IMG/VR virus record: IMGVR_UViG_2671180885_000001
Coordinates: 1-27,426 of that record
Strand: one strand, 5' to 3'
DNA: 27,426 bases
From: a virus
Lineage: Duplodnaviria > Heunggongvirae > Uroviricota > Caudoviricetes
The translations under genes were made by a program, and so were the position numbers. Each line of letters starts with the position of its first letter. Position 1 is the stretch's first letter. Under the pieces are notes generated by a model, which worked only from the letters and a program-made list of their open reading frames with translations, was not told the origin of the DNA and made no database searches. Of this stretch, positions 7,452 through 27,426 are shown one piece after another.

Positions 7452-7454
7452 GGA

Positions 7455-8513: not shown

Positions 8514-8529
8514 CAGGTTTTGTGCTCCA

Positions 8530-9363
8530 TCAGCAATTTGTCAGAGTGTCAGCGGGGGCATTACCGCCTGTTGCACGCTGGCGGTAGTCCTGGCGGCTGT
8601 CTTCATGGCTCAGCTTGTCCACCAGTTCATTAAAGGTGGTCAGCTGTGCCTGCAGGGCTGTCTCCAGCTCAGACAGGCGTTCTTCCTGTTCAGACAGGGA
8701 TTTTTCGGTGCGCGCACTCAGGTTTTGCTGCTCAGTGGCGACCAGCTCCACGGCCTTATGCACATCAGAGAACCGGGCATCATCGGACTGCTCTTTTTTG
8801 GTGAACAGCGCCGTGACACGGGCAAACAGGGATGGTTTTTCGTCCTGGACTTCTTCCAGTTCGATCACCGTTTCCTCTGCAGCGGTAAAGAGATTGGCGG
8901 GGTTCTGCTTGCGGTTTGCCAGCGGGTTATGGGCTGCACTGGCGCTGAATGTCAGCATTTCAGTGCCCAGACTGGCAGGGTCATCAGTGGCAGCCAGGCC
9001 AACCAGGTAGGCTTTGCCCGTATCAGCAAACTTCGGGCTGACTTCCATAGAGGTGAATAATTTCTGGCCTTTTTTCACCAGCTCCACCAGGGACTCCGTT
9101 GGCTCAACGTCGGCATACAGCGCCATCTTGCCTGCCAGCGGACCTTCCTTGATTTCTTCAGCAAACAGCGCCGTCACCTTGCCGTAGCGGTTAAAGGTGC
9201 TGTCCGGCAGATAAGACTTGATGTGCTCAAGGTTAATCAGCGCGGTATACACCGCCGGGTTGTAGCTGGCTGCCATCTGTTCCAGCCATTCACGCTGGAT
9301 TTCGCGTCCGTCGGTGGTGGCACCTTCCACCCCGATGCGAAAACGCTTTGCTTTCACTGTCAT
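8530..9363 (-). CDS. O: Capsid scaffolding protein (P2 gpO-like)
   Basis: ORF track 277 aa; coiled-coil C-terminal region; divergent from P. Confidence 0.8.
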   Translation of the reverse strand: MTVKAKRFRIGVEGATTDGREIQREWLEQMAASYNPAVYTALINLEHIKSYLPDSTFNRYGKVTALFAEEIKEGPLAGKMALYADVEPTESLVELVKKGQKLFTSMEVSPKFADTGKAYLVGLAATDDPASLGTEMLTFSASAAHNPLANRKQNPANLFTAAEETVIELEEVQDEKPSLFARVTALFTKKEQSDDARFSDVHKAVELVATEQQNLSARTEKSLSEQEERLSELETALQAQLTTFNELVDKLSHEDSRQDYRQRATGGNAPADTLTNC

Positions 9364-9441
9364 GAGCCGTGCTCCGTTAGAAAAAACTTACTGGAGCCTT
9401 ATGGTTGCGGTGATAGGGGCAGTGAAACAATGCGCGGTATT

Positions 9442-9459
9442 TGTACCGACAATCACACA
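9442..9459. promoter_or_regulatory. Putative late-promoter activator site (TGT-N12-ACA) in the O/P divergent intergenic region
   Basis: TGTACCGACAATCACACA centred about 55 bp upstream of the P start codon, same spacing as the dyad upstream of V. Confidence 0.3.
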
Positions 9460-9505
9460 AACCGCAGGCGGGGAAAGCCTTCATTCAAGGCTGTAGGTTT
9501 GTGCC

Positions 9506-11272: not shown

Positions 11273-12312
11273 TGAAAGAACATATCGCGCCAGGCGAAAC
11301 CGTAACTGCAGAAGAAACTAAAAAACCCGTTGCGGAGGCTTTCAGCTTTGGTGATCCCATTCCTGTACTGGACCGCCGCGAACTGCTGGACTATGTGGAA
11401 TGCGTACAGATGGATCGCTGGTATGAGCCGCCCGTCAGTTTTGACGGACTGGCACGAACCTTCCGCGCCGCCGTGCACCACAGCTCCCCGATCAGTGTTA
11501 AACGTGACATCATCAGCAGTACCTATATTCCACATCGCCTTCTCAGCCAGCAGGCATTTACCCGTTTTGTGCAGGACTATCTGGTTTTTGGTAACGCCTA
11601 TCTGGAGAAGCGCACGAATCGCTTTGGTGAAGTTATTTCGCTGGAGCCTGCACTGGCAAAATACACCCGGCGCGGGCTTGACCTTGAAACATACTGGTTT
11701 GTGCAATACAGCCTGACGACACAGCCGTATCAGTTCACAAAAGGTAACGTCTTCCACCTGATGGAGCCGGATATCAACCAGGAGATTTATGGTCTGCCGG
11801 GTTACCTTTCTGCCATTCCGTCAGCTCTGCTCAACGAATCCGCCACGCTGTTCCGCCGCAAGTATTACATTAACGGCAGCCACGCAGGCTTCATCATGTA
11901 CATGACCGACGCCGCGCAGAACCAGGAGGATGTGAACAACATCCGCAAGGCAATGAAAAGTGCTAAAGGGCCGGGCAACTTCCGCAACCTGTTTATGTAC
12001 TCGCCTAACGGCAAAAAAGATGGCATTCAGATTATCCCGTTGTCGGAAGTCGCGGCGAAGGATGAATTTCTGAACATCAAGAACGTCAGCCGCGATGACA
12101 TGATGGCGGCTCACCGCGTACCGCCGCAAATGATGGGCATCATTCCCAACAACACTGGCGGCTTTGGTGATGTGGAAAAAGCGAGCCGTGTCTTCGTCCG
12201 CAATGAACTGATGCCACTGCAAAAGCGACTGCAGGAGCTGAATGACTGGCTGAATGAAGAGGTGATCCGTTTTGAAGCTTATGACTTAGGGCTTAAGGGC
12301 AAACGAGGCTGA
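11272..12312 (+). CDS. Q: Portal protein (P2 gpQ-like)
   Basis: ORF track 11269..12312; ATG at 11272 overlaps the P stop (TGATG); P-Q order toward cos as in P2. Confidence 0.85.
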   Translation: MKEHIAPGETVTAEETKKPVAEAFSFGDPIPVLDRRELLDYVECVQMDRWYEPPVSFDGLARTFRAAVHHSSPISVKRDIISSTYIPHRLLSQQAFTRFVQDYLVFGNAYLEKRTNRFGEVISLEPALAKYTRRGLDLETYWFVQYSLTTQPYQFTKGNVFHLMEPDINQEIYGLPGYLSAIPSALLNESATLFRRKYYINGSHAGFIMYMTDAAQNQEDVNNIRKAMKSAKGPGNFRNLFMYSPNGKKDGIQIIPLSEVAAKDEFLNIKNVSRDDMMAAHRVPPQMMGIIPNNTGGFGDVEKASRVFVRNELMPLQKRLQELNDWLNEEVIRFEAYDLGLKGKRG

Positions 12313-12347
12313 CATACTCATAACATCAAAACCCGACCAACTCTCAC

Positions 12348-12383
12348 AACGCCTCAGCAGCATTCTGCGGGGCGTTTCTTTTT
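12348..12383 (+). terminator. Putative intrinsic terminator downstream of Q
   Basis: Imperfect GC-rich hairpin (AACGCC..GCAG / CTGC..GGCGTT) followed by TCTTTTT. Confidence 0.4.
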
Positions 12384-12472
12384 GCCCTGAATCTCCCCCC
12401 CCTCCACTAAATGAGGCCGCCAGCGGGCCAGAGGCTGTGCCGGATTTTGGCCATTTTACCCCGTTGCGCGCG

Positions 12473-12491
12473 CTCGTATCCCCGCCACGCC
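12473..12491. other. Putative cos (cohesive end) site
   Basis: Minus strand reads GGCGTGGCGGGGATACGAG; the first 13 nt match the start of the 186/P2 19-nt cohesive end as I recall it; position between Q and the tum/dinI-A block is where cos lies in P2-family prophages. Confidence 0.4.
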
Positions 12492-12694
12492 TGCCCGCTT
12501 TGTGTAGTGGTTTTCATGCACCTGCATGACATAAGCAAAAGCCCGCCAGTTCTGGCGGGCCTGAGCAAAAACGATCCTCAAACGATCATGCGATTTCATG
12601 CGGCATAGACATGCACAACAGCACTAACGCCTCGCGTGGCTCGTTGTTCAACCTTGCGGACGGTAAAAACCAGTTTTATCGTCCGCAACGTTCG

Positions 12695-12928
12695 CTAATG
12701 TAACCAGCTGTCGTCCTCCCAGACCTGCTGCATTATTTCCATCACTCGCTTTTTATCTTCATCCAGTTTTAACCCGCTCAGCTCAACGCCGTTGGCACTG
12801 CCCTTACGGATACGAATTGCTGTTTTGGGATACAGAGGGCGCAAATTACGGTAAAGCTCGGATTCAAGGGCGTCCAGTGTAGCCTGGCTAATCTTCTGCT
12901 CTTTATCGATCATTATTTCAATGCGCAT
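12695..12928 (-). CDS. DinI-family protein
   Basis: ORF track 77 aa, MRIEIMIDKEQ...EIMQQVWEDDSWLH, typical DinI length and termini; own RBS AAGGGA. Confidence 0.75.
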   Translation of the reverse strand: MRIEIMIDKEQKISQATLDALESELYRNLRPLYPKTAIRIRKGSANGVELSGLKLDEDKKRVMEIMQQVWEDDSWLH

Positions 12929-12939
12929 ACAGATTTCCC

Positions 12940-13155
12940 TTAACTGGTTACGTCCATTGACCGGCAGTATTCATGGCTGCGGATTTTCGCCATCAGCTCG
13001 TCGGTCAATTCAGACACCCACTGGATAGCCAGCCGCTTTTCTTCGTCGCTGCACTCACTAGCCGCTACAAGCTTAATAAAAAAATCAATGCGCTGGAGCT
13101 TCAACGACTCCAAAAGATAGTCCTGCATCTTCCCTCCTATCACGACCCCGGACAT
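12940..13155 (-). CDS. Small SOS-controlled protein, possible Tum-like antirepressor (start uncertain, alternative ATG at 13128)
   Basis: ORF track 71 aa; directly downstream of a strong LexA box; position matches the 186 tum region downstream of A. Confidence 0.4.
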   Translation of the reverse strand: MSGVVIGGKMQDYLLESLKLQRIDFFIKLVAASECSDEEKRLAIQWVSELTDELMAKIRSHEYCRSMDVTS

Positions 13156-13175
13156 GCGTTAACTGTATGCATATC

Positions 13176-13195
13176 CACTGTTTATATATACAGTA
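13176..13195 (-). promoter_or_regulatory. LexA operator (SOS box) overlapping the promoter of the tum-like/dinI-like operon
   Basis: Minus strand TACTGTATATATAAACAGTG, i.e. CTGT-N8-ACAG with AT-rich spacer; overlaps a TATACT -10-like hexamer about 20 bp upstream of the ATG at 13155. Confidence 0.65.
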
Positions 13196-13289
13196 TACCC
13201 CTGATATCCAAAAGTAAAATATTTTTTATCCGTCAATGAGAACGTTCTTACGAGGGTCGTTAAGAGCATGAATTGTTAAAGCCTTGCCG

Positions 13290-15683
13290 TCAGTACCACT
13301 GGCGCCATTTGTCATCTTCCTGCAGTCGATGGTTGCGGTAAAAAATCCGTAGCCCGGCACCTGACGGAATGCTGCCACCACGCAGAAGCAAATCAATCTC
13401 AGATGCACTACCTTCAAACCCTCTGGCAGTCAGTTCTGCCTCAAGCTGCAGGCTCTGCTGCTCCGAAATACTCTGTTTGAATGCTTTTTTCCGCTTCGGT
13501 TTTACCAGTCTTAACCTGGCTGTCAGCTCCCGGCGTTCCTTCTGGCCCATATTGTGGAGGTAATCGTGCAGTTCCTGCTCATTCATGGTTTTAATATCGG
13601 GCAAATCACCCCCTGATTTGTTCAGATTTTCAACAGGGGGACAGTTATTGCCACGAGTCCAAGGGGCGCAAGCGCCCTGGTCGGCTGCCGCCTCCTGAAC
13701 GTCAACGACCTTACGAACCATTTTCCATTTCATTGCATGAGTGCAGATCTTGCCCTGTACAATGGGTGACCAGATGCCATAAATACGAATACCGTGATCG
13801 CCATAAGCGGTCGGCTCTTCGTTAATTTCATAAGCTGTTCTGATAAGGTGATATTTGCGGGGAACCAGTACGCCGCCCTGCTTCATGATGTAGGTGGCAA
13901 AACAGCCAGCATCAGCGGCAGCCAGGATGGCATCAAGGCGCGGGTCATCCAGTACCGGCGCACCTGCTTTTTTGTCACCCTGTTGCCTTGCCGCCTGACC
14001 AGCCAGCAAGCGAAGTTCACGGTACGCCTGACGCCCCGGAATACCAAAGAAGCGGAACTGCTGAACACGATGCAGAGACGCCCAGGCATTAACGTATTCG
14101 GCGTTATCACGCAGGGATTTACCCGTTTCCTTGCTGATCTCGCCAGCCAGACCACGTCCGTCAATGTTCTTACTGATGTATTTCGCGATGTAGCTTGTCG
14201 GCGTTCCTTTGCGCGGGTTTATCAGCTCAGACTTAAAGCGTGGACCAGTGTTATTACCCAGCTCCTCGCGGTCTTCACGAATGGCAAACTTACGCAACAA
14301 AGCAGTAATGGCGCGGCGATCTTTTTTGCGCATAAAACACAACAGGTGCCAGTGAACTGTACCGTCATGATGCGGCTCAGCCACCCGCACGCCATACCAG
14401 CGCAATCCGGCTTTGTGCATCGCCTTACGAAATGCAGCAAACATGCCGACCAGATAATCACTGCTTTGTCTTACCGTCGCATTTGTCCAGGTCGGGTTGG
14501 GCCTGCCGTTATTTAGCGTGGAATGGAAACGTGACGGACAGGTGATGGTGTAGAAAACGGCGCAGTCACCGCGCATTTCCGCGATAAGCTCCAGACCTTT
14601 AACACAGGCCATCATCTCATTGCGGCGATGCGCAGGGTTGCTGCTGCTGGCGTTTACCACATCCTCCATGTCCAGCGTGTCGCCGTCTTCGTTCACCAGT
14701 TCATGAGAACGGAAAAACTCCAGCGACTTACGGCGCTGCTCACGTTTATGCATCACGGCTTCATAGCTGACATAAGGAGATGCTTTTTTGCTGACCAGGC
14801 AGACAGCGCGCAACTGCTCTTCCCGCCATTCGCAACGCATCTTCCATAATTTCCGATACCACCAGTCGGCGCACAACATACGCGCCAGCGAACCCGGAAT
14901 GAGTTCATAGGGCACGGGTTTACGGCGGTTTCTTTTCCGGCGGAGTTGATCAAACGCAGGCGGGATGACATCCAGACGCAGGGTTTCCGCTGCCACCTTT
15001 TCCCATGTCTTGCGGATTTCTTCTGGCTTAACGTCATCGGTGACATACAAATCGCCACAAGCTGCATCAAGGCACATGCTCATATGCGCAGCGACAAGGG
15101 TAGACAAGCGTTTCACCTGCTCCTGACTCATTTCAGGCAGGATCAGCAGGCCGTCCAGCCCTTCATGGCTTGCCATAAAGCGAAAAGAAGTGGATAGCTG
15201 ACTGTCGCGTACATGCTCCAGTCGTTCCAGACATGGCTTAATCGTCTCACGCAAATAGCGGGAATAAGCCTTTGGCCTGCCCAGACTGCTGAAGTATTCA
15301 ATACGTTGCATCAGCGGCTTGCTGATATGGGAAGGCTGGGCGTTAACGTCTGCCAGAATGACCATGTCCGGGTTAAAACGCTGCTGCTCATGCGCCAGCT
15401 TTGCCCGGCTAATGAGCTTATCCTGCTCCATTTCGCGTTGGACAGGATCACGGGATTCATTAAAGAAATAACGCTCCCAGACCTGATCACTCAGTGCCTC
15501 GCGGCGCAGTTGTTCCTGCTCGTTATCGGCAGCGTACAGAGTGATCAGGTTTGAAAGCGCAGAAACCGGCGCAACTTCCGCCGGGTCCAGATAAGGGTTA
15601 ATGGCCTTTTTCGGGCTGTTCCATGAGAATGCTGCGGCGACCTCGTTAAAGCCGCTGCAGTTGTTCATATCATCATGGCTCAT
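13290..15683 (-). CDS. A: Replication initiation endonuclease (P2 gpA-like, rolling-circle HUH-type)
   Basis: ORF track 797 aa; VHWHLL HUH-like motif and YIAKYISK tyrosine motif; ATG overlaps Dam stop. Confidence 0.85.
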
Positions 15684-16537
15684 GCACGCACTCCGTACAT
15701 GGCAGAACTATCCACGCCACGCGAAGGATCAAATCCCACCCAGCAGCGCGCCCCGGAAACAGCAATGATTTCTGTTGCAGATTTACTCTCGCCAGCCGAC
15801 ACGCCGATGCTGCGTTTTGCCTTGATGTAGTGGTGAGTGAAATTGCGATACAGCGAACGAATCAGGGATGTGTCACTGTTAGAAACAATGACCGGATGAC
15901 CTTCAGATGATCGATGTTCAAGAACGGATGCCAGGTGATACTGGTCATCTTCAGTGAAGCCATCAGTGTGATAGCCGGAAAACGTACCGTCATACGGCGG
16001 ATCGCAATACACCACATCCCCCACCTGCAGCATCGCCAGCGTTTCATCAAAGCTTGCGCAGATAAACGTTGCACGCTGGGCTTTCTCTGCAAATGCGCGA
16101 ATTTCTTTTTCAGGGAAATACGGATTTTTATAATTACCGTACGGAATGTTGAAATGCCCGCTCTTGTTATAGCGACATAATCCACGGTAACCATGACGAT
16201 TGAGATACAGGAAATATACCGCTTTCATGAAATCAGTAATTTCAGTGGAGTAATTAAACTCCTGCCTTATGTTGTAATAAGCCACCTCCCTGTTTGCTTC
16301 CTCAAATAAAGCTCTGGCACGAGATATAAACGCCTCGCAATCAGCAGCAACCTTTTTATAGAGGTTGATTAAATCAGGATTAATATCCGCAACAAGATAG
16401 CTGGGGTAATCCGTCTCCATCATCACAGCACAGGAACCCGCGAAAGGTTCAACCAGTCGCGGGCCAGCAGGAAGGTGTTTTTTCAGTTCGGACATAATGG
16501 CGATTTTATTTCCCGCCCATTTCAGGATGGTGCTCAT
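15680..16537 (-). CDS. DNA adenine methyltransferase (Dam family, N6-adenine, probable GATC specificity)
   Basis: ORF track 15680..16597; internal ATG at 16537 ([11 protein letters not shown]) with GGAGG upstream; motifs FAGSCAV (AdoMet binding) and DPPY (catalytic); ATGA overlaps with both neighbours. Confidence 0.8.
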
Positions 16538-16761
16538 ACAGCACCTCCGTTGTAATGTTTGCCTTTCAGCTCTGCAATTTCCTGGCAGGTAATGCAAAGC
16601 TGCACACCCGGAATGGCACGGCGGTGTGCTGGCGGAATTGGCGCTTCACACTCAATGCAAAGCACGCGAGACACGCCCGGTGTTTTGGCACGGGCAGCAC
16701 GGATATGGCGCTGGCGTTCTTCTTCAACGCGCTGCTGTACGAGATCCATTGCATCAGCCAT
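16534..16761 (-). CDS. TraR/DksA-family C4 zinc-finger protein
   Basis: ORF track 75 aa; CIEC...CITC four-cysteine pattern near C-terminus. Confidence 0.65.
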   Translation of the reverse strand: MADAMDLVQQRVEEERQRHIRAARAKTPGVSRVLCIECEAPIPPAHRRAIPGVQLCITCQEIAELKGKHYNGGAV

Positions 16762-16994
16762 TAGTGGATCTCCTGCGCTTCGTTCTGGATTGCTTCAGCA
16801 GTCACACGCAGCAGTTCTGCCGCTTCCACGTGGTTTAGCTGACGGGATGAGATATGACACGCCAGGCTATCAAGGCGAGCTGCCATTGCTTCAGCCCTTG
16901 CCCGGCGTTCTTCCAGACGAGCCTCTGTCAGTAAAATATTAAGCCCTGCATCATCCGGTCCGGTTTTAGTCGTGAGGGTTTCAATATTACGCAT
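16761..16994 (-). CDS. Hypothetical early-region protein
   Basis: ORF track 16761..17000 starts on a non-ATG codon; ATG two codons in (about 16994) sits about 7 nt after AGGAGA; my hand reading of this stretch was internally inconsistent by 1 nt, so exact start is uncertain. Confidence 0.4.
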   Translation of the reverse strand: MRNIETLTTKTGPDDAGLNILLTEARLEERRARAEAMAARLDSLACHISSRQLNHVEAAELLRVTAEAIQNEAQEIH

Positions 16995-17061
16995 AATCAA
17001 TTCTCCTGAATTTAGATAAAGGGATGCCCGGCGGGTTTACGCCATTAATTTCATTAGTTGG

Positions 17062-17403
17062 TTAATTCGGCATGGTTAGCCGTCTGGGAAATAAGCTCAC
17101 CACTGCACGAAAATGATTCATTGCTTTAATCAACTCCCGCTTTTCGTCAGTGGTCAGCTCATTAATGCTGATGCTATGACGTTCAGCTGGAATTTTTGCC
17201 ATAAAGAATATGGCAGCCAGTGCCCGTTTATTTTGTTCGCTATTAATATCCCGTGAATCACGCATATCTTTAATAAACCGCTCAAGCTCTGACTCAATAT
17301 TCAGGCCAAAAACTTTCGCCCTTAACTCCGCAATGTGATTAAGTCCATTCAGGCGTTCACCGGGGCTTAATGGAACAGTCGCCGCAGTGCCTTCAATAGC
17401 CAT
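17062..17403 (-). CDS. Hypothetical protein, somewhat AT-richer than neighbours
   Basis: ORF track 113 aa; in-operon position between B and A. Confidence 0.4.
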   Translation of the reverse strand: MAIEGTAATVPLSPGERLNGLNHIAELRAKVFGLNIESELERFIKDMRDSRDINSEQNKRALAAIFFMAKIPAERHSISINELTTDEKRELIKAMNHFRAVVSLFPRRLTMPN

Positions 17404-17567
17404 TGGTTCCCCCGTTTTTTCGTTGATAGTTCTGCCAGCAATTCATCCTGTGAACGGCACGGATGCCAGCGTTTACCATCCTCACCCATGATCCAGCCGT
17501 GACCGTAGTGCATTGCCGGGCTTTGTTTAACCAGCAGCGATGCAAATGATGGTTCTTTCGTAAGCAT
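17367..17567 (-). CDS. Hypothetical small protein
   Basis: ORF track 17367..17600; internal ATG at 17567 (MLTKEPSF) with GAGGTG upstream, just downstream of the B stop. Confidence 0.35.
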   Translation of the reverse strand: MLTKEPSFASLLVKQSPAMHYGHGWIMGEDGKRWHPCRSQDELLAELSTKKRGNQWLLKALRRLFH

Positions 17568-17574
17568 AAGCACC

Positions 17575-18084
17575 TCACAGCAAACCGAATGAAGCACCAA
17601 GGCCAGTCATGGTATCAACTGCACTCGCCATCGCAGGATTAGCCTGTAAGCGGGCCTGCAATGAAACAGCAGCCAGCGCCATCAGTCGTGTAACAGAGTT
17701 AATGCTGCTGATAGCATCACGACGGCCTGCACTGGTTTTTACATCTCCAGAAACCGCACCTGCCGCGACACGACCTATCTCTGCAGTTGCACTCATGACG
17801 TAATGCGGTAGTTTCTCTTTTGCCACCTCATTAATCGGAACACATGGCAGACAATGAATCTGTGCCAGAAAACCATCTACCAGCGTTGAATCTTCAGTCA
17901 GATCGGTAAGTAGCCAGATATCTGGCGCATTGAGCTGATGCGGTTGATCTGGGTTGAGTTTGTTTCGCAGAGTCTGGACATTCATTCCTGCACGTTCTGC
18001 CAGCTTCGCCATATTGTGACGAAGTGCAAAAGCTCTACAGGCTTCATCAAAATGCGGGTGTTTGGAAATCTTATAATCAAACAT
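17575..18084 (-). CDS. B: Replication protein B (P2 gpB-like, helicase loader)
   Basis: ORF track 169 aa; size and position (between cox-like gene and A) match P2 B. Confidence 0.7.
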   Translation of the reverse strand: MFDYKISKHPHFDEACRAFALRHNMAKLAERAGMNVQTLRNKLNPDQPHQLNAPDIWLLTDLTEDSTLVDGFLAQIHCLPCVPINEVAKEKLPHYVMSATAEIGRVAAGAVSGDVKTSAGRRDAISSINSVTRLMALAAVSLQARLQANPAMASAVDTMTGLGASFGLL

Positions 18085-18116
18085 GCTACCCCCTTAGAAA
18101 GTTCTCATAATTGAAC

Positions 18117-18359
18117 TTACTTACCAACAATGACGCGGAAGTTGGAATGACCGAGGGATTCACGGACCTGATCGGTTTTGTACATTAAATAACGCAGGTT
18201 TACGCGGCCTTTGTTTTTTTCTTTCTTGACCATGTATTTAGCAAGCTGACCATGGTGAATTTTTTGATACACGGAGCCGCGGGAGATACCTTCCCATTCC
18301 GCGAACTCTGCAGGCGTAGCCATCTCTTTTGGTACACGAATTGAAATATCAGTGCTCAT
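18117..18359 (-). CDS. Cox/Apl-like excisionase and transcriptional regulator
   Basis: ORF track 80 aa; HTH-like segment PAEFAEWEGISRGSVYQKIHHGQL; first gene of the early operon, divergent from the repressor. Confidence 0.6.
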   Translation of the reverse strand: MSTDISIRVPKEMATPAEFAEWEGISRGSVYQKIHHGQLAKYMVKKEKNKGRVNLRYLMYKTDQVRESLGHSNFRVIVGK

Positions 18360-18389
18360 AGTGCAGTATCTCCCGATTAAGGTTTGGTT

Positions 18390-18465
18390 TACGTCGTTTT
18401 ATCTCGTTTTACTTGATTCAATATTTGATACATCGAGATACTACGATCCAATATTTGATACGTCA
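18390..18465. promoter_or_regulatory. Lysogeny/lysis switch region with direct-repeat operator candidates
   Basis: Direct repeats CAATATTTGATAC (about 18419 and 18449, 30 bp apart) and TCGTTTTA (twice near 18393-18411) between divergent cox-like and repressor genes. Confidence 0.4.
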
Positions 18466-18478
18466 ACAGGATTAAAAA

Positions 18479-19111
18479 ATGATACAGGTAAAGGTTGGAG
18501 AGAATACAGGGGGAAGAGAGGCTATCCATAGACTAATGGCAGCCTATGATTTCAAGTCCAGACAGCAACTTTGCGATCACTTAGGCGCATCAAAAAGCAC
18601 CATGGCAAACAGATACTTAAGAGATAGTTTTCCTGCAGAGTGGGTGATTCAGTGCGCCTTGGAAACAGGAGTTTCTTTACTGTGGCTAACCACCGGACAG
18701 GGGGAGCCAGGTCCAAACATTGAACCTAAAAAAAATATCAATTCCGTGAACTCCAGCAAGGTTGTACCTCTTTCTGAACTAGTATCTCCTGAAATTGACA
18801 AGGCGACTCTCAACGGTGGTTTATTGGTCGATGCTGGAAAAGCAATCATTGATAGCAGCATACTCCCCTCAGACTCAAGCAACCTACTGCTGGTGACTAC
18901 TTCTGGTGATTCTTATTTAATAGATCGCAACCAAACACCACCAGTAAATGGTATGTGGTTAGTCGATATCGACGGGATAAAAAGCATCGTTAAATTGACT
19001 CGACTCCCGGGAAACAAATTAGTAGTGCATCAGGATGATTCATCGTTTGAGTGCGGTCTGGATGACATTGAGGTAGTAGGCCGCGCACTGAAAATCATTA
19101 AGAGCCTTTGA
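18479..19111 (+). CDS. cI: Immunity repressor, 186 CI-like (N-terminal HTH, C-terminal oligomerisation domain)
   Basis: ORF track 210 aa; far longer than P2 C (about 99 aa) and close to 186 CI (about 190 aa); immediately upstream of int. Confidence 0.65.
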   Translation: MIQVKVGENTGGREAIHRLMAAYDFKSRQQLCDHLGASKSTMANRYLRDSFPAEWVIQCALETGVSLLWLTTGQGEPGPNIEPKKNINSVNSSKVVPLSELVSPEIDKATLNGGLLVDAGKAIIDSSILPSDSSNLLLVTTSGDSYLIDRNQTPPVNGMWLVDIDGIKSIVKLTRLPGNKLVVHQDDSSFECGLDDIEVVGRALKIIKSL

Positions 19112-19112
19112 T

Positions 19113-20132
19113 ATGACCATCAGAAAACAGCCGAACGGAAAATGGTTGTGTGAGTGCTATCCCAATGGACGCAATGGCAAGCGCGTGCGTAAGCAATTTG
19201 CCACGAAAGGCGAAGCCATTGCGTTTGAAAGCTTCACAATGGAAGAAGTGAATAAAAAACCGTGGTTGGGTGAAAAGGATGATCGGCGACGCCTATCAGA
19301 ATTAATTGAGCTTTGGTATTCCCTGTATGGTCAGACACTCGCAGACCCCAAGCGCCTCATGGCGAAACTTAGAATTATCTGTAATGGTCTAGGCGACCCC
19401 ATCGCCTCTGAGCTGACAGCAGGTGATTTCACAAAATATCGGGAAGCCAGATTAAAGGGGGAGGTCCAAAATGAAGACGGTTCGTTCATGTCACCCGTTA
19501 AACCTCGCACAGTTAATCTTGAGCAGCGTAACCTGTCATCGGTGTTCGGTACATTGAAAAAACTAGGGCACTGGTCCGCACCAAACCCGCTGGCAGGGCT
19601 TCCAACCTTCAAAATTGCTGAAGGTGAATTGGCTTTTCTTTCCACGGACGAAATCAAACGCCTGTTGGCTGCATGTGCTGAATCTCAAAGCCCGAGCCTA
19701 CTAATGATTACCAAAATATGCTTAGCTACCGGCGCACGGTGGAGTGAAGCCGAAAAACTGCAGGGCCATCAGTTATCCAAATACCGCATCACTTATACCA
19801 AGACGAAGGGCAAGAAAAACCGTACCGTGCCGATATCTCAGGAGCTGTACAACGAACTTCCTAAAAACCGAGGGAAGTTATTCTCGCCATGCAGAAAAGC
19901 CTTTGAGCGTGCAGTAAAGCGGGCCGGTATTGAGCTTCCAGAGGGTCAATGCACCCATGTATTACGTCATACATTTGCCAGCCATTTTATGATGAACGGA
20001 GGAAACATACTTGTTCTTAAAGAGATTCTCGGTCATACAGATATAAAAATGACAATGGTTTATTCTCATTTTTCCCCAGACCATCTTGAAGATGCCGTTA
20101 CCAAAAACCCTTTACATATGTTAACTATTTGA
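19113..20132 (+). CDS. int: Tyrosine integrase (P2 Int family)
   Basis: ORF track 339 aa; C-terminal catalytic region HVLRHTFAS...LGH...Y; position next to att. Confidence 0.9.
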   Translation: MTIRKQPNGKWLCECYPNGRNGKRVRKQFATKGEAIAFESFTMEEVNKKPWLGEKDDRRRLSELIELWYSLYGQTLADPKRLMAKLRIICNGLGDPIASELTAGDFTKYREARLKGEVQNEDGSFMSPVKPRTVNLEQRNLSSVFGTLKKLGHWSAPNPLAGLPTFKIAEGELAFLSTDEIKRLLAACAESQSPSLLMITKICLATGARWSEAEKLQGHQLSKYRITYTKTKGKKNRTVPISQELYNELPKNRGKLFSPCRKAFERAVKRAGIELPEGQCTHVLRHTFASHFMMNGGNILVLKEILGHTDIKMTMVYSHFSPDHLEDAVTKNPLHMLTI

Positions 20133-20142
20133 GCTTATCAAA

Positions 20143-21363
20143 ATGGATATTAAAAACAAAGTCAATAAAGAAAAGTTATTTGAGAACCATTTAAACTCAT
20201 TATTAAAACAAGTCATTTCCGAACCAAAATTAAACCCTCCACTTATAGTACATAGAGATATAATAAGTGACTTCACTGAACGTTGCGATAAGTATCTAAA
20301 AACAATAATTAAATACAAAAGCAACAATAAAGATGGGATGCCGAATTTTGATGAATTAATCAGCAAAGCTAAGAACATTCAAAATGGAATAACATTATCA
20401 CTTGAAAGTTTTTTATCCGGTGATATCAAGTCAGCATATGACCACTTTGATAAAACATTCTCTGATAACTCAACAATCCAACACATACATCGCATCACTA
20501 CTCCACTCAGTAGCATTTGCAATCATAAAAAACCATTATTTCGAGTTAGAAAAAGTGAAAATCCTCTAACGTCAAGAGATGAAATTTTCCATATTCCATT
20601 CTCCAATAGACATTTTGTTAGTGCACAAAGATATTCAGTCGCTGGCTTACCATGTTTATATCTTGGCACTTCTGTTTATGTTTGTTGGCAGGAGATGGAA
20701 AAACCAGATTTTGACAAGCTTTTTATTTCATCATTTACTACCAGTGAAACTGAATATAAAGTCTTAAACTTTGCATCACAGCTTTTGTTACATCCCTCAC
20801 CAAATTACGCTGACGAAAATAAACTAGCCGAAACAAATAGAGTAAAGGCCTCTTATCTCATTTTCTGGCCTTTAATTATTGCATGTAATTATTTAAAAAA
20901 TCATCGTTCTGCAACATTCATACAAGAGTACATTATCCCTAATTTGTTGATGCAATGGATTAGTAGAAAAACTTACTCGAAAATTGTCGGTGTAGCTTAC
21001 TTCTCTACAAAAATGCCTAATTCACGATTAAGTAACCGCTCAATAAATGTTGTATTTCCACCCAAAGTTACATATGAACAAACGGTAAAACAAAATTTTT
21101 GCCCTAAACTCTCCACATTATTCGACTTTACGCCACCTATTTCGTGGCAGGTCTTAAAAACATTAGATCATTCATCAATAACAGAAAATTCAATAGAATT
21201 GATGATGTCAAAGAGATATCTTCAAAGTCAAGAAAAACTGTCTGGAATTAAAAACTTCGAAGAGGACATTGTAAAACTATACCCCTTAACTGATTTTTAC
21301 AAACTCGAAAGAAGTATTGATATGCTATTTGAATATAAAAAGATAGATAACCCCATACTATAA
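20143..21363 (+). CDS. AT-rich cargo protein of unknown function with RES-domain-like motifs
   Basis: ORF track 406 aa; markedly lower G+C by eye than all flanking phage genes; blocks LFRVRK, RYSVAGLPCLYLGTSVYVCWQEM and GVAYFSTK resemble the Arg, Glu and Ser blocks of RES-domain toxins (from memory, not searched). Confidence 0.55.
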   Translation: MDIKNKVNKEKLFENHLNSLLKQVISEPKLNPPLIVHRDIISDFTERCDKYLKTIIKYKSNNKDGMPNFDELISKAKNIQNGITLSLESFLSGDIKSAYDHFDKTFSDNSTIQHIHRITTPLSSICNHKKPLFRVRKSENPLTSRDEIFHIPFSNRHFVSAQRYSVAGLPCLYLGTSVYVCWQEMEKPDFDKLFISSFTTSETEYKVLNFASQLLLHPSPNYADENKLAETNRVKASYLIFWPLIIACNYLKNHRSATFIQEYIIPNLLMQWISRKTYSKIVGVAYFSTKMPNSRLSNRSINVVFPPKVTYEQTVKQNFCPKLSTLFDFTPPISWQVLKTLDHSSITENSIELMMSKRYLQSQEKLSGIKNFEEDIVKLYPLTDFYKLERSIDMLFEYKKIDNPIL

Positions 21364-21478
21364 AACTGGCGACAAATTGGCGGCAGAACTTTAAAATCAC
21401 ATAAAACAGCCAAACACAAGATAAGACTAATTCACTGATTTAAAAAGTAAATATCTATTTTCACTATAATATAAATGG

Positions 21479-21525
21479 TATGTAGGAATTTCGGACGCGG
21501 GTTCAACTCCCGCCAGCTCCACCAA
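21479..21525 (+). other. Prophage attachment core (attR) = duplicated 3'-terminal about 47 nt of ssrA (tmRNA), ending CCA
   Basis: ATGTAGGAATTTCGGACGCGGGTTCAACTCCCGCCAGCTCCACCA matches the E. coli tmRNA 3' end (T-arm, acceptor stem, CCA); upstream sequence is not ssrA, so this is a partial copy. Confidence 0.8.
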
Positions 21526-21651
21526 TCATGATTGGACGGTGTAAGGACAACACCAACAAAAACAGGAAGTTAGAAGTCTCAGCAAAACACCGACCAGACG
21601 GTGAGGAGACATAAAAGGATACGCAAAGGAGCCGCGGCTCCTGGTAACATG

Positions 21652-21676
21652 AAAGCCCACAGATGTGGGCTTTTTC
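21652..21676 (+). terminator. Intrinsic terminator hairpin between attR and the autotransporter gene
   Basis: AAAGCCCAC-AGAT-GTGGGCTTT followed by TTTTT. Confidence 0.5.
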
Positions 21677-21684
21677 GTTGATGG

Positions 21685-24600
21685 TCAGAACGACCAGTTC
21701 ACACCAGCTACCGCGTTCCACGGGGATTCCACACCGGCACTATGGCTATACCCCACCCCAAGATGCCCGCTTAACGTACTGCTGAATGAGGCTTTAATAC
21801 CTGCCTGGTATATTCCACGTCTGCCCGACAAATAATTGACGAAATTACCGTCACTATTCACTTTCACCCGGTTATCATCGACAAATTCTTTGCGCACAGC
21901 CGCCTTCAGCCACGGCTCAACTTCCATACCGTTCCCCAGACGCATGTTGTAACTCAGCGTTGCGCCCAGTTCACGATATATACTGCGGGTATCGACTGAT
22001 TTCGATTTCATGCCATTGGATAAATGATATTCGGGGTTATCAGCGGTGAACCCCGTTAACGATGCATACGGCGTCAGGTTCCAGTTACCATCGGTAAATC
22101 GCATCCCGGTTTCAATGTGACCGCCCAGCCCGTTGCTGTGGTAACTGCCATTGGCGGCTCCACCGCTGCTCATTTTACCTGCTACGTTACTTTTAAAACG
22201 GTTCAGCTTCACGACACCGTCCAGATAGAAACCACTTTCATGTTCCCAACTGGCATAGCCGCCCAGAGAATAACTGCCCACACTGCCATATCCTCCGCGA
22301 TCAAAACCGATATGTGAATGGGAATAGCCCATAAAAGCGCCTAGCGTGGTAATTCCTTCAGGAATATCATTACGGCTGTCGATCCCCACTGTCATTCCGG
22401 TCAGCGTCTGCTCAAACCCGGCACCCGCATCGGTGGTGACATTATTACGGGTGTTATACGTCGCCCCCCAGACATTATTGTTGTGTGGACTCGCTTTCAT
22501 TATGTTCAACCGCTCGCGAATACTGTTTAGCTCAGCATCAAATACCAACGGTAATGTTGCTGCCATATTGAGTACGGCTGCCGTAGAAGGCGTAATGCGT
22601 TTCTCCGGAACGGGTGTCGGCGTTGGATCGGGAGTAGGGTCTGGTTTTGGATTTGGGTCTGGCTTTGGATCGGGTTTTGGGTCTGGCTTTGGATTTGGGA
22701 TGGGGTCCGGGTTGGGTTTGACATCATTGGTCAGGTTCCAGTTGCTGTTGCCGTCACTTTTCAGGACATACTCATAGGTCCCAAGATCAACGAAACCGCC
22801 GGTATTGCCCAGCGTAAACGAAGCATCCCCTCCCCCTGTTTTCACCAGCGTCATCGCGTCGTCAGACTGTGGGCTGACGCCGGTATCCTGAACAAAGATT
22901 TTAAAATTACCAGTGGCGTTGTTGTTGACGACCAGTTGATCGCCCCGGGAGCCTGCAACGTTGGTATGCAGGTAGAAATTACCGCTACCGGAAAGTTCAT
23001 TGGTTGTCAGCGTATTGTAGATACCGTTAGTTGTGGCAGGCGCTGCTGTTTGTGCTGACAAATAAACATCACCGTCGTTGAGTAGCAAACTGTTTACTCT
23101 ATATTCGCAGTTGCTGGTACCTGCACAGGAATTATTGCTGTTAAGCCAGACACTGCCCCGGCTGGCAGCCGTCAGGTCGGCAAGCGTGGTATCGACGCCA
23201 TTTCCCAGAGTCAATGTCGCGCTATCGGTAATCCGGACCGCCCCTTCGAGTTTAACTGGCGTAACATTATCCCGTGGCGTCATTAACGACAGGCTTCCTG
23301 TCGCGCCACTGACCGATGCATCCGCCAGCGTACCTGCGTAGACGATTGCCGTACCGCCAGCGACCTGGAGATCTTCTGCCCGGGCCAGAGCCTGAAACTC
23401 ATCTTTTGACCGCCCAAGGGTATATTGCCCGCCAGAGTTAACCTTTGTGGCGGAGTCCTGACCCAGGTTTTGCATTGCCCCACCCTTGCCAACCGTGGAG
23501 TCGCGAGCTTCGGTACCTGCTAATACCAATAAATTACCGCCATTTTCCAGCAACATATTGGTCGCTAAATTGCCGGAAATGGAAAAAGTACCGTACTGGT
23601 GAGTACCGCTGATTTCAATACCGTTAGCCGTGCTCGTCTGGAGAGCGGCACCGCTGTTCTGGACGATATCTGTCGCTTTGCCATTATCGTTGACTGTCAG
23701 CGTACCGCCTTCATTGATCTTTGTTTTTATTGCCTCTCCGTTAGCTGAAACTGTTTGTATTCCGCCGTCGTTAATTGTTGTCTCATTCGCCACACCCTCG
23801 ACAATTTGTTCACCGCCGGTGAGCGTCGTGCCTGTCGCAGTGGCTTTTGTTTTGACGATCTCCCGTCCGCCCATATTGACCTGTGTTTTGTCAGAAGAGG
23901 TGTCTGACTCCACGGTTAACACGCCGCCATTTGCCAGCAGGATATTGTTCGCCGCACCCTGCTCGATGCTGAACGCGACGCCATCCGCGCGTGTTCCTGT
24001 GACCCGCGTCGCCCTGGTGGTTGCAACCAAAGCGCCCTGGCTACTCTGCTGTATCCCCGTTGCGCTGCCTTTCTCCCGCACATCGAGTGTGCCGCCGTCA
24101 TTAAGCACCGAGTTTTCAGCCAGACCGCCCTCATTAACTACCTGTGAACCCCCATTAATAATGGAACCTTCCGCTGTCCCGTTTGCCATAATTTGTTGTA
24201 GGCCAGAGACGATATCGGTATTGATTGCCTTACCATAATTCTGAACGGTTTGCGTGCCACCATTGATGTGTGTTTTCTCTGTTGACCCACCATCAACAAT
24301 TTGTTCACCACTTTCGATATTTGCTTCAGTGGCTAAACCATATACCGTTTGCTTGCCACCTTTGATATTTGCTTTATCAGAAGTGGCACTGGCATATATT
24401 GTTTGGGTGCCAGCACTATTGAGTACAGTGCCAACATCTTTTCCATAAACATCCATTTTGCCGTTGGCATTAATAATCGTGTCAACTGCCCGGGAACCAG
24501 TGACGACTGTTAATGAGCCAGCGTTTTCCAGCACTACATTTTTAGCTTCTGAATTCCTGATGTAGAAAGCATCACCATAACTGTTGGTTCCTTCGATAAG

Positions 24601-26265
24601 TGTTCCGGAGGTCGTGGAAGCAATTAATGCGCCGCCGGATTGTTGCTCAACATGCTTAGCCTCACCACCGTCCTGAACCTCCAGAACGCCGCCATTATTA
24701 AGTCTGGTGCTATCTGTTTTAGCCTCCTTCTGGACAATCAGCTTACCGCCAGTATCAATGGTAGTATTTTTCGCCGAGGTTTTAGCCACTACCGTCAGTT
24801 CGCCGGTATTTTCCAGCACAACATAATTAGCCTCCCCTCCGGTAATAGTGAAGTGAGAGAGCTTGTTGTATCCTTCGATATCAGTCCCTGCACCCGTGTT
24901 GGCAACTAAAGCACTGCCCGTCTCCTGGTTAACCCCATGTGCAATACCGCCGGTATAGACAATCAGCGAGCCTCCGGCGCTAATATTGCTGCCAATTGCC
25001 GTACCATCTTTCTCAACAACCTGCCGGCTCCCGGAGGATATAATTGTTGTGTCAGCTTTCCCGCCGCTTTTGATATTTTGCGTTCCGCTGTTGATATTGG
25101 TGCCTGTGGCTATGCCATAATTATTAATATTCTGTGTGCCACCATTAATTATGGTATTTGTCGCGTTTCCTGCAACATCCATAACCCCGCCATTATCTAT
25201 TCGGGTCGCATCAGCTTTAGCATTGGTTAAAACTGACATTGTTCCTTTATCTTTAATAATCGTCTTGTTTGCCGAACCATATGCGTTTATGTCTAAATGA
25301 CCACCGTTTTCCAGCAACACATTGTCTGCCACGTGATTGTGGATGGAGAATGCACCTTCACTATTCGTACCGCTCACCGTCGTACCGTTAGTGTTAGTTT
25401 TTAAAATTGCACCATCGTGCTGGGTAACATTTGTTGCCGTACCACCACTAACATCAAGCACGCCACCAGAATAAACTTCAATAACATCCGAGGTGCTGGT
25501 GTTATCAACAATTTGCGTGCCACCAGAATAGATATGCGTATTTTTTGCCGTTGACTTACTATTCAGAGACTGAGTTCCGCCTTCAATCGTCGTGTCCAGC
25601 GCACGGCTCTCATATACTCTTTGCTCACCGCCATTTTTAATGGTTGTTGTTTCTACTGTGCTCTGTTCAACATACTGTCGACCACCATTTATGGTTGTGT
25701 TCGTTGCCAGACTTCCTTGTACTACGTCCTGAGAGCCAGACTTATTTATCGTTGTACCATCAGCATGCCCTTGAACTTTTACTATCTGGCTACCACCATC
25801 AATGAGTATTCCATTCGCACTCCCTCCCTCTACGCGTGAAGCACCGCCCTTAATTGTCGTTCCATTGCTGATACCCCCTTTATAAACGTCCTGATTGCCA
25901 CTCTCGATTGTCGTACCTGTGGAAATACCCCCGTCATGAATTGACTGTCTGCCACCGTTAATGGTTGTATTATTAGCCTGCCCCACAAAATTGTTATGAC
26001 TTCCTATATCTTGATATCCACCAGATTCAATAAGACTTCCATTAGATACCCCGCCATGAACATTCTGCTGGCCATGGTTGATAATATGAGTGTTATTTGT
26101 TGTACCTCGTTCATCCACTTTTTGGTTGCCATCTACAGTCTCATCGTTTACCACACCAATAACATTAGTAGTGAAGGCAGCCATCCCGGGCGGGGCATAT
26201 ATCAAGGCAGATATCAATAAGGAAAGTACTGAGCGGCGACAATAATAGGGACTGGTCCTGTTCAT
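21685..26265 (-). CDS. ypjA: AIDA-I-type autotransporter adhesin (YpjA-like): signal peptide, long beta-helical passenger, Pro-rich linker, C-terminal beta-barrel
   Basis: ORF track 21685..26394; start at 26265 (MNRTSPYYCRRSVL) has GAGGA about 8 nt upstream and gives about 1526 aa; repetitive GG/T/N-rich passenger, PNPDPKPDP linker, C-terminus ending NWSF; chromosomal context beside ssrA island end matches K-12 ypjA. Confidence 0.75.
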   Translation of the reverse strand: MNRTSPYYCRRSVLSLLISALIYAPPGMAAFTTNVIGVVNDETVDGNQKVDERGTTNNTHIINHGQQNVHGGVSNGSLIESGGYQDIGSHNNFVGQANNTTINGGRQSIHDGGISTGTTIESGNQDVYKGGISNGTTIKGGASRVEGGSANGILIDGGSQIVKVQGHADGTTINKSGSQDVVQGSLATNTTINGGRQYVEQSTVETTTIKNGGEQRVYESRALDTTIEGGTQSLNSKSTAKNTHIYSGGTQIVDNTSTSDVIEVYSGGVLDVSGGTATNVTQHDGAILKTNTNGTTVSGTNSEGAFSIHNHVADNVLLENGGHLDINAYGSANKTIIKDKGTMSVLTNAKADATRIDNGGVMDVAGNATNTIINGGTQNINNYGIATGTNINSGTQNIKSGGKADTTIISSGSRQVVEKDGTAIGSNISAGGSLIVYTGGIAHGVNQETGSALVANTGAGTDIEGYNKLSHFTITGGEANYVVLENTGELTVVAKTSAKNTTIDTGGKLIVQKEAKTDSTRLNNGGVLEVQDGGEAKHVEQQSGGALIASTTSGTLIEGTNSYGDAFYIRNSEAKNVVLENAGSLTVVTGSRAVDTIINANGKMDVYGKDVGTVLNSAGTQTIYASATSDKANIKGGKQTVYGLATEANIESGEQIVDGGSTEKTHINGGTQTVQNYGKAINTDIVSGLQQIMANGTAEGSIINGGSQVVNEGGLAENSVLNDGGTLDVREKGSATGIQQSSQGALVATTRATRVTGTRADGVAFSIEQGAANNILLANGGVLTVESDTSSDKTQVNMGGREIVKTKATATGTTLTGGEQIVEGVANETTINDGGIQTVSANGEAIKTKINEGGTLTVNDNGKATDIVQNSGAALQTSTANGIEISGTHQYGTFSISGNLATNMLLENGGNLLVLAGTEARDSTVGKGGAMQNLGQDSATKVNSGGQYTLGRSKDEFQALARAEDLQVAGGTAIVYAGTLADASVSGATGSLSLMTPRDNVTPVKLEGAVRITDSATLTLGNGVDTTLADLTAASRGSVWLNSNNSCAGTSNCEYRVNSLLLNDGDVYLSAQTAAPATTNGIYNTLTTNELSGSGNFYLHTNVAGSRGDQLVVNNNATGNFKIFVQDTGVSPQSDDAMTLVKTGGGDASFTLGNTGGFVDLGTYEYVLKSDGNSNWNLTNDVKPNPDPIPNPKPDPKPDPKPDPNPKPDPTPDPTPTPVPEKRITPSTAAVLNMAATLPLVFDAELNSIRERLNIMKASPHNNNVWGATYNTRNNVTTDAGAGFEQTLTGMTVGIDSRNDIPEGITTLGAFMGYSHSHIGFDRGGYGSVGSYSLGGYASWEHESGFYLDGVVKLNRFKSNVAGKMSSGGAANGSYHSNGLGGHIETGMRFTDGNWNLTPYASLTGFTADNPEYHLSNGMKSKSVDTRSIYRELGATLSYNMRLGNGMEVEPWLKAAVRKEFVDDNRVKVNSDGNFVNYLSGRRGIYQAGIKASFSSTLSGHLGVGYSHSAGVESPWNAVAGVNWSF
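22610..22720 (-). repeat. In-frame tandem repeat encoding the (P-D/N-P-K/T) linker of the autotransporter
   Basis: Reiterated GGGTCTGGCTTTGGAT-like units on the plus strand, about 6 bp periodicity. Confidence 0.5.
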
Positions 26266-26649
26266 AAATTTCATCCTCTGAAAAGTGAATACTGAGTAGC
26301 GTTTAAGCGACCTTAGCTTTGCTGCAACATCAGCCCACAGGCACCAGACCAGGGGATTCATCCTGAAGAGACAGCGCAAGTGTATTGTGTTCACCGCTCA
26401 TCAAAGACATCATGATGAAATGATGATATTCCGCATAAGAATGAGGCATTTTTTAAACGCAGTGCGCTGAAGTGTGGTTGGATAAAAAAGTCAATCCATT
26501 CAGGAAATACGGGCGTATTCTTTTCTTTCGACAATGAGGCCGTTGGCAAAATAAAATGATTTACATAATCGTTTCTGATGAATATCTTCTGCTCACATAA
26601 AAATCACACAATAACTTTGAGATCGCAGATTGTTTTACTTTTACAGCAT

Positions 26650-26790
26650 TCGTCCCCCCATTGTTGGGCAAATATAGATTGGGCCAGAGCACGAAAGTTA
26701 ATACCACGTTCGCACAGCTCCTCCAACAGCACGACAAGATGCCACATACTGCGCCCCAGTCGGTTCAGTTTACAGACTAGCAGTGCGTTC
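26650..26790 (-). pseudogene. Serine recombinase (Hin/Gin/Pin-type DNA invertase) fragment
   Basis: Minus-strand translation [38 protein letters not shown] resembles the invertase core (WKLDRLGRSM...ELRERGINFRSLTDSI); no intact ORF; K-12 has a pinH remnant next to ypjA. Confidence 0.5.
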
Positions 26791-26814
26791 CCTGCCGATG
26801 ATGTCCTGACCAGT

Positions 26815-26900
26815 TTTTTCAGTCCGGACCTCCTGCCACGGTTTTACGTTGAAGTGGTAACCCTGAGCACGCAGTTCTTCAGTCAGGCGTGGTGCACCGT
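26815..26900 (-). pseudogene. Short IS3-family transposase OrfB-like fragment
   Basis: Minus-strand translation [22 protein letters not shown] resembles the IS3 OrfB N-terminal region; flanked by a stop and non-homologous sequence. Confidence 0.3.
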
Positions 26901-27165
26901 AACGCTGTTATTGCTGGGTAAGATCAAAAAACTTTCAGGCAGCTAAGGAAAGTTGAACCAGACATTAGATGAAATATTTCAACCAATTACAGCACCAATT
27001 CAGTCACTGCCAGCCCACCAAATAAATCAAGGGGTTACATGAAAACGTAGCCCCTTTTTCTTTGGTAGTGACACTAAAATGGATGTAGTGTGAAGAATAA
27101 TCCCGTTTACTCAATCAATAATACATATTGTTTCAATCTACGTTATTATCTCTTTGTAAAAATTG

Positions 27166-27426
27166 GGTGATGCTGCCAACTTACTGATTTAGTGTATGAT
27201 GGTGTTTTTGAGGTGCTCCAGTGGCTTCTGTTTCTATCAGCTGTCCCTCCTGTTCAGCTACTGACGGGGTGGTGCGTAACGGCAAAAGCACCGCCGGACA
27301 TCAGCGCTATCTCTGCTCTCACTGCCGTAAAACATGGCAACTGCAGTTCACTTACACCGCTTCTCAACCCGGTACGCACCAGAAAATCATTGATATGGCC
27401 ATGAATGGCGTTGGATGCCGGGCAAC
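27166..27426 (+). mobile_element. IS1 insertion sequence, left end (element continues beyond window)
   Basis: Begins GGTGATGCTGCCAACTTACTGATTTAGTGTATGATGGTG, the IS1 terminal inverted repeat and leader; downstream sequence matches insA. Confidence 0.85.
27221..27426 (+). CDS. insA: IS1 InsA (transposition repressor), 5' part; GTG start; truncated by window end
   Basis: GTG GCT TCT GTT TCT ATC AGC TGT CCC gives [23 protein letters not shown], the InsA N-terminus; the ORF-track entry 27192..27404 is in a different frame. Confidence 0.7.

Follow-up and report, generated by a model that had tools for sequence, protein, structure and literature searches.

The 46 nucleotides at positions 21480-21525 of the window, by which we mean the whole 27,426-nt stretch of DNA that was analysed, are almost certainly the core of the int-proximal attR of a Fels-2/SopEPhi-type, 186-like Peduoviridae prophage in the 3' end of ssrA in Escherichia coli (attR being named with ssrA read left to right). 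For annotation, this fixes the right boundary of the prophage to the base, with phage DNA up to 21479, a shared core at 21480-21525 and chromosome from 21526 onward. It also identifies the ssrA piece as a displaced relic, of a kind that annotation pipelines sometimes call 'tmRNA ssrA', and the base-exact junction can guide the choice of primers for detecting excision.

An attR junction of this sort is an ordinary feature of an already known kind and brings no new biology. The mechanism by which phages of the Fels-2/SopEPhi type integrate at ssrA was reportedly described in 2003. It is established that such phages target ssrA and that an integrating element brings along the 3' end of the gene it targets (PMC3448106; PMC4383910). 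Some discovery value attaches only to two leads, a putative RES-like cargo gene in the interval between int and att, and a one-base polymorphism that bounds the crossover.

The ssrA fragment

A 45-mer (ATGTAGGAATTTCGGACGCGGGTTCAACTCCCGCCAGCTCCACCA) that occurs once in the window, on the + strand at 21480-21524 and with 0 mismatches, corresponds exactly to the final 45 nt of ssrA, a gene of 363 nt in E. coli K-12 MG1655. The run of identity is exactly 45 nt long and ends at 21480; T21479 falls outside the match, K-12 ssrA having a G there. At the other end, A21525 lies past the mature CCA end and occurs both in attP of the phage and in the unoccupied, or empty, bacterial site (attB), so that the block of perfect identity between attP and attB comprises 46 nt, 21480-21525, with this extra A on the + strand as its last base. 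The two sites diverge from 21526, where attP reads ATAAA.. and both the window and the empty site read TCATG... The preliminary description had equated 47 nt (21479-21525) with the ssrA 3' terminus. The match is real, but its length has to be corrected to 45 nt of ssrA within an identity block of 46 nt, T21479 being mismatched. The possibility that the match is fortuitous, which had been raised as well, can be dismissed, as an exact match of 45 nt that appears in 0/100 dinucleotide-preserving shuffles is far beyond chance.

Read against the Rfam structure line, the fragment comprises, all on the + strand, a T-stem (21497-21501 and 21509-21513), the T-loop (21502-21508), the 3' acceptor strand (21514-21520) and the terminal ACCA (21521-21524). 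ARAGORN predicted no tmRNA or tRNA gene in the window, and Rfam gave no match in it at the gathering score. With a permissive threshold, Rfam matched a tmRNA truncated at its 5' end, at 36.5 bits where the cut-off is 47; the alignment is confident only over the last ~45 nt (the T-arm and the 3' part of the acceptor). The 5' acceptor half, the tag reading frame and the pseudoknots that characterize a functional tmRNA (RF00023) were not found with ARAGORN or Rfam. Judged from its sequence, 21480-21525 is a fragment of ssrA and not a gene, a non-functional relic that would also be the substrate for excision by Int plus Apl. A functional tmRNA, a tRNA and a permuted tmRNA were each considered for 21480-21524 and were ruled out by the two programs.

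The phage attachment site

Core and left flank are shared with the attachment sites of free phages. Both the annotated split attP of Fels-2 and the int-to-ogr intergenic region of Cartapus read ...AAAAATGGT-ATGTAGG...CCACCAA, with the same core and left flank as the window. The combination is found in 13 records for 9 named phages, including SopEPhi, RE2010, SEN8 and Cartapus; among its carriers are also Yersinia phage MLG42 and several Klebsiella phages. Beyond the core, Fels-2 and Cartapus run rightward into a strong terminator hairpin of their own (AAGGGGTTACGTGAAAGCGTAGCCCCTTTTT; -19.8 kcal/mol, z -5.3) and then into the P' arm; the window has TCATGATTGG... instead of the phage terminator. 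The identity of the core and its phage-side flank with the attP of Fels-2, Cartapus and SopEPhi bears out the earlier proposal that the segment is a duplicated att core rather than a gene.

The P arm of attR (21364-21479, + strand) is A+T-rich and fills the interval between the cargo stop codon and the core. It aligns with the int-side arms of the Fels-2 and Cartapus attP and with the attR of strains ET734 and 63-2. Conserved in this alignment are two direct repeats, 11 bp apart (21367-21385, + strand), that are putative arm-type Int-binding sites: TGGCGACA at 21367-21374 and TGGCGGCA at 21378-21385. The pair is kept in 5/5 aligned att sites and recurs in the P' arms of Fels-2 and Cartapus. 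Comparison of these two phages with the window attR thus gives an attP in which a core equal to the ssrA 3' end has 186-type arm repeats on both sides. The window repeats are the reverse complement of the arm-site consensus published for 186-type integrases, tgccGCCActt (PMC3448106). Binding of Int to the repeats at 21367-21385 is what we infer from this sequence resemblance.

The prophage left of the core

Some 21.5 kb of prophage lie to the left of the core. From position 1 to 20132, the gene order is that of Fels-2 from tail fibre H to Int, with 58-99% amino acid identity in tblastn with 37 Fels-2 proteins. The shared order begins with H, I, J, W, V, S, R, LysC/B, endolysin, holin, X, L, M, N, O, P and Q, and continues with a DinI-like protein, a 62-aa protein, gpA, Dam, a DksA-like, an orf79-like and an STM2733-like protein, Fil, CII, Apl, CI and Int. 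This colinearity refers to the genes in the window, H to Int, the genes left of H lying outside it. At the DNA level (megablast), 87-92% of the phage part (~20 kb) is 93-94% identical to Peduoviridae of Klebsiella and E. coli, including Escherichia phage Cartapus, whose genome has cos ends. The morphogenesis, lysis and replication genes of Peduoviridae stand in canonical order, and Pfam GPA, CII and CI domains were found. The stretch at 1-18084, as identified by tblastn, megablast and Pfam, holds a truncated tail fibre gene H, baseplate, lysis, head, terminase and portal genes, cos, a DinI/Tum-like operon, gpA, Dam, Fil and CII; the start of the window is probably a contig break inside H.

The genes nearest to att form the switch and integration module. 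A tyrosine integrase of Fels-2 type is encoded at 19113-20132 (+ strand; Pfam Int_N 1e-29, Phage_integrase 3.5e-24). Identity reaches 90% with Fels-2 Int over 338 aa but only 38% with P2 Int, and the integrase gene adjoins att with one cargo gene between it and the P arm. To its left lie a 186-type CI immunity repressor (18479-19111, + strand; Pfam Phage_CI_repr and Phage_CI_C) with 58% identity to Fels-2 CI, and an Apl/Cox-like excisionase and repressor (18117-18359, - strand; PHROG excisionase/Cox-like families) with 98.7% identity to Fels-2 Apl. Together with CII and Fil, these make up a switch of the 186 type. The preliminary description had read the DNA upstream of the core as phage DNA, and more precisely as a P2/186-like prophage of Fels-2 type; the Fels-2 colinearity, the Peduoviridae matches, the CI/Apl/CII/Fil switch and the integrase confirm this at each level.

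A pattern search placed a near-consensus LexA box (CACTGTTTATATATACAGTA) at 13176-13195, directly upstream of a leftward operon with a 71-aa ORF (12940-13155, - strand) and a DinI-like gene (12695-12928, - strand). We take this layout to resemble the SOS-controlled tum region of phage 186. Given a LexA box upstream of a Tum/DinI-like operon, the prophage is predicted to be SOS-inducible in the manner of 186. A cos site is present at ~12523, because the genome termini of Cartapus map there. Int, Apl, cos and the LexA-controlled operon all appear intact in sequence, and the prophage may still be competent for excision.

Among the known phages, the closest counterparts are Fels-2 and SopEPhi of Salmonella (Peduoviridae, Felsduovirus), which share with the window the attP core, its left flank and the type of arm repeats. 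A passage in PMC3448106, citing Pelludat 2003, reports that Fels-2 integrates in ssrA. The window differs from both phages in its host, E. coli, and in its right neighbour, ypjA. It differs from Fels-2 in its CI, which at 58% identity probably represents a different immunity type, and in the 1.2-kb cargo gene that separates int from the P arm and is lacking in Fels-2. Cartapus (Elveevirus cartapus) and other P2-like relatives from Klebsiella and E. coli have the same attP core and arms. In Cartapus the slot between int and att holds a homologous cargo gene, of which the window carries a strongly diverged allele; Cartapus has an extra ORF between attP and ogr ('putative exonuclease protein'), and its cos-proximal slot contains other genes. 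Coliphage 186 resembles the window in its CI, Apl, CII and Fil, in its LexA-controlled Tum/DinI-like operon and 186-type arm sites, and in carrying a long tRNA-type core that regenerates the target gene.

The chromosome right of the core

The DNA at 21526-21684 (+ strand) is bacterial and represents the B' side, the native sequence downstream of ssrA. As an empty-site probe we used 500 nt made up of the 3' half of K-12 ssrA and window positions 21525-21774. It matches natural isolates at 100% identity and is covered to >=80% in one piece in 2514 of 5426 complete E. coli genomes. Since ssrA followed directly by ATCATGATTGG... does occur in E. coli as an empty site, the flank from 21526 onward is the native downstream region of ssrA, and at the junction phage DNA meets what lies behind ssrA where the site is unoccupied. 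In K-12 the same flank directly adjoins the CP4-57 attR on its right side, and the match, which starts at 21526, continues into ypjA.

Between the att fragment and ypjA, 10 nt past the ypjA stop codon, lies a terminator-like bidirectional hairpin (AAAGCCCACA/TGTGGGCTTT) at 21652-21673, which was recognized as an inverted repeat and by folding and is followed by a T run. The folding energies are -19.7 kcal/mol on the + strand and -16.0 kcal/mol on the - strand, with z about -3.3 on both. A simple terminator scan did not list the site; folding supports the hairpin. It is probably the terminator of ypjA and, at unoccupied sites, of ssrA. Just before it, still in the native ssrA downstream region, is a perfect 16-bp palindrome, AGGAGCCGCGGCTCCT, at 21627-21642.

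A 1569-aa ORF at 21685-26394 (- strand) encodes the chromosomal ypjA/ehaD adhesin-like autotransporter, with Pfam AIDA, Pertactin and Autotransporter domains and with corresponding RefSeq annotations under the match. Hairpin, autotransporter and the correspondence with the distal end of CP4-57 had all been put forward from the sequence alone, and all three are upheld. The last part of the window, 27166-27426, is the left end of an IS1 element that continues beyond it. The element is missing at this place in two near-identical draft assemblies (L010 and L012), and it probably caused the contig break.

Integration model and the other junction

The observed identities, the synteny, the empty sites and the attL of related lysogens fit the standard model for integration into tRNA and tmRNA genes, in which the 3' part of the target gene is brought in by the element, so that the gene is restored on insertion and its former 3' end comes to lie on the far side of the element (PMC4383910; PMC3448106). 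In this scenario, attP would contain the end of ssrA as a 46-nt copy, with a phage terminator behind it, and each of its arms would hold paired 186-type arm sites (TGGCGRCA). The tyrosine Int, presumably together with a host bending protein, would exchange strands within the 46-nt block, likeliest in the region of the T-stem and T-loop and 5' of T21518. At attL, outside the window, the bacterial 5' part of ssrA would be completed by the phage-borne 3' end and terminator, and we propose that tmRNA stays functional because the gene is completed in this way. The original bacterial 3' end would be displaced by ~33-35 kb and would come to lie beside the phage P arm, still joined to its native downstream DNA and to ypjA.

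A search of the window for a second copy of the core, allowing <=3 mismatches, found none, and there is no other ssrA in the window either. E. coli 63-2, which has a single prophage of this kind with the same Int/att module, shows the arrangement in full. There, the attR fragment adjoins ypjA and the intact ssrA is 34.5 kb away, where attL, beside smpB, consists of a full 363-nt ssrA, the phage terminator and arm repeats. The earlier statement that the other junction lies outside the window agrees with both observations. Given that the prophage is colinear with Fels-2, attL should be found ~11-14 kb to the left of the window start, for a prophage of ~33-35 kb.

In 63-2, RefSeq/PGAP labels the attR fragment and the P arm together as a 177-nt 'tmRNA ssrA' (NZ_CP050040.1 1065327-1065503), besides the real ssrA. 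This false label is an annotation artefact and is also present in other lysogens (H50, H51 and H53).

The arm-core-flank arrangement of attR is present in at least 109 complete E. coli genomes. Strain ET734 (NZ_CP100922.1, ~1153400-1200000+) has two closely related P2-like prophages in tandem at ssrA with an attP-like junction between them, and the ssrA 3' end is regenerated at this junction as it is at attL of 63-2. The tandem array makes the caveat of the preliminary description, that additional islands might lie between the window and the intact ssrA, a realistic one. Several genes of the ET734 prophages are annotated as frameshifted.

In a further contig (L008, 11338-21221), an identical phage end with Int, cargo gene and core is joined to a different right flank that starts with AAATTCTCCATCGGTGATTACC. 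In K-12, ssrA is followed by this sequence at the CP4-57 attL; in L008 it leads to LysR, flavin reductase and RND efflux genes. The flank reflects either another host background or an array in which a further island stands in tandem. The same phage end on a different flank demonstrates the mobility of the element.

Alternative explanations

The fragment might be the relic of an older ssrA island of the CP4-57-like P4 type, to which the P2-like prophage is merely adjacent. K-12 indeed has a decayed ssrA 3' fragment at exactly this position, beside ypjA, as the attR of its cryptic prophage CP4-57, which also targets ssrA, and the sibling assemblies show the one-base deletion of K-12 type in the right part of the core. 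CP4-57 is, however, an unrelated element with an unrelated, P4-type integrase (IntA), and its relic keeps only ~17 nt of a shorter, decayed core (ACTCC-GCCAGC-CCACCA) behind a different left flank. The window core is instead perfect over 45 nt, passes unbroken into the Fels-2/Cartapus P arm with its arm repeats, and is contained in the phage's own attP. We regard this explanation as very improbable and as largely refuted; at most, some lineages may have inherited the bases on the right side of the crossover from an older relic.

Two further explanations are less probable still. That the phage truncated and inactivated ssrA, leaving a pseudogene in a strain that lacks functional tmRNA, might be supposed from the window itself, which contains only the last 45 nt of the gene, and from the 'tmRNA ssrA' label that PGAP sometimes gives to such fragments (the 177-nt feature of 63-2). 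Relatives with the same Int/att module nevertheless have a full 363-nt ssrA at attL with a phage-borne 3' end, attP bringing both that end and a terminator, and we give the idea next to no credence. The same holds for a function of the fragment itself, whether as a tRNA-like 3' element or processing signal for the cargo transcript or as one half of a two-piece tmRNA. The cargo gene does read towards the fragment with no terminator-like site between them in the terminator scan, and Rfam gave a weak permuted-tmRNA match (23.4 bits). That match, however, reaches half the gathering cut-off and extends over no more than the T-arm and the 3' half of the acceptor, which are shared, while Fels-2 has the same att without a cargo gene. 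The right part of the fragment also decays elsewhere, by 1 nt in L010 and L012 and by 5 nt in a third contig, L011, as expected without selection. An attR core with a displaced ssrA 3' end, belonging to a Fels-2/SopEPhi-type prophage, remains the reading that we adopt in what follows.

A one-base polymorphism and the position of the crossover

The draft assemblies L010 and L012 (the latter SNME01000001.1 of GCA_013351165.1) are 99.98% identical to window positions 10143-27165 and 100% identical to it in the prophage part. Their attR (~11376) is without T21518 and reads GCCAGC-CCACCA. The CP4-57 attR of K-12 (L004 23462-23477) has the same deletion, as does attR in 12 complete genomes of natural strains that carry P2-like prophages, and the single ssrA of DTU-1, a laboratory strain, is affected likewise. 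A variant of the phage attP was considered as its source and found no support in the phage records, none of the attP records that were checked having the deletion.

Given that the deletion occurs in attR and never in attP, the deleted base belongs to the bacterial side of the exchange. On these sequence comparisons, strand exchange would certainly take place 5' of T21518, and most likely in or near the T-stem and T-loop. T21518 is, we assume, the partner of G3 of tmRNA in the G3.U pair, the alanine identity pair. Because of this pairing with G3, loss of the base is expected to be tolerable only in a displaced copy. From the distribution of the polymorphism, the sequences suggest that phages of this kind may integrate into, and so repair, ssrA genes that were damaged by the earlier excision of a CP4-57-like island.

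In L011 (~11338-11380), a lysogen with an identical cargo protein, the displaced fragment has a 5-nt deletion (CCCGCCAGCCAATCATG). The deletion fits a neutral decay of attR in its right part.

The cargo gene between int and att

Between the integrase gene and the P arm, a gene at 20143-21363 (+ strand, ~32% G+C) encodes a protein of 406 aa with a putative RES-like fold, as characterized by its ORF, PHROG, an AlphaFold (AF2) model and Foldseek. The protein belongs to phrog_7835, a family listed in PHROG as of unknown function, and searches of Pfam, PADLOC, NCBIfam and a PDB sequence profile gave no matches; in particular, the Pfam RES domain was not found at E<=0.01. It is 46% identical in amino acid sequence to gp33 of Cartapus, which is annotated as a 'putative RES protein', and homologues of ~400 aa annotated as 'hypothetical' occur across Enterobacterales.

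RES-domain toxins are marked by a RES/ART-like catalytic fold, a conserved Arg...Glu...Ser signature and, usually, an Xre antitoxin partner. The AF2 model of the cargo protein has a pLDDT of 88.5 and a pTM of 0.90, and its top PDB match in Foldseek is the RES toxin MbcT of M. tuberculosis (probability 1.0, E 4e-3, TM on target 0.51-0.57). The family shares the invariant motif RVRK...FHIPF..R...QRYSV.G.PCLYLG.S.Y..W.E, and the invariant residues include R134, R136, R163, S165, S177 and E184. Among the neighbouring genes, none that is Xre-like lies beside the cargo gene.

The integrase-att interval has been described as a minor defence hotspot of P2-like phages (bioRxiv 10.64898/2026.02.27.708500). 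In related prophages the same slot is occupied by genes for an anti-phage dCTP deaminase, GapS1 or an HNH protein, which makes the cargo gene a candidate for a role in defence; in Fels-2 the slot is empty. On the basis of the structural model, the cargo protein may be an uncharacterised single-gene, NAD+-targeting anti-phage or abortive-infection effector in this hotspot. The joint reading, in which the cargo is an NAD+-targeting defence effector and the phages repair ssrA damaged by excision of a CP4-57-like island, is tentative and in our judgement rather doubtful. At the DNA level the cargo gene is absent from the 5426 complete E. coli genomes, where the best coverage is 69%. The exact protein is encoded on at least 127 blocks of public contigs, one of which has a different right flank.

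P2-like phages have another hotspot next to cos, where defence cargo is usual. In the window this slot (12313-12690, from portal to the DinI/gpA side) is nearly empty, with only cos and a 65-aa ORF, which sets the window apart from Fels-2 and SopEPhi. The slot is occupied in Fels-2, Cartapus, ET734 and L008/L009 (Cap4-nuclease protein).
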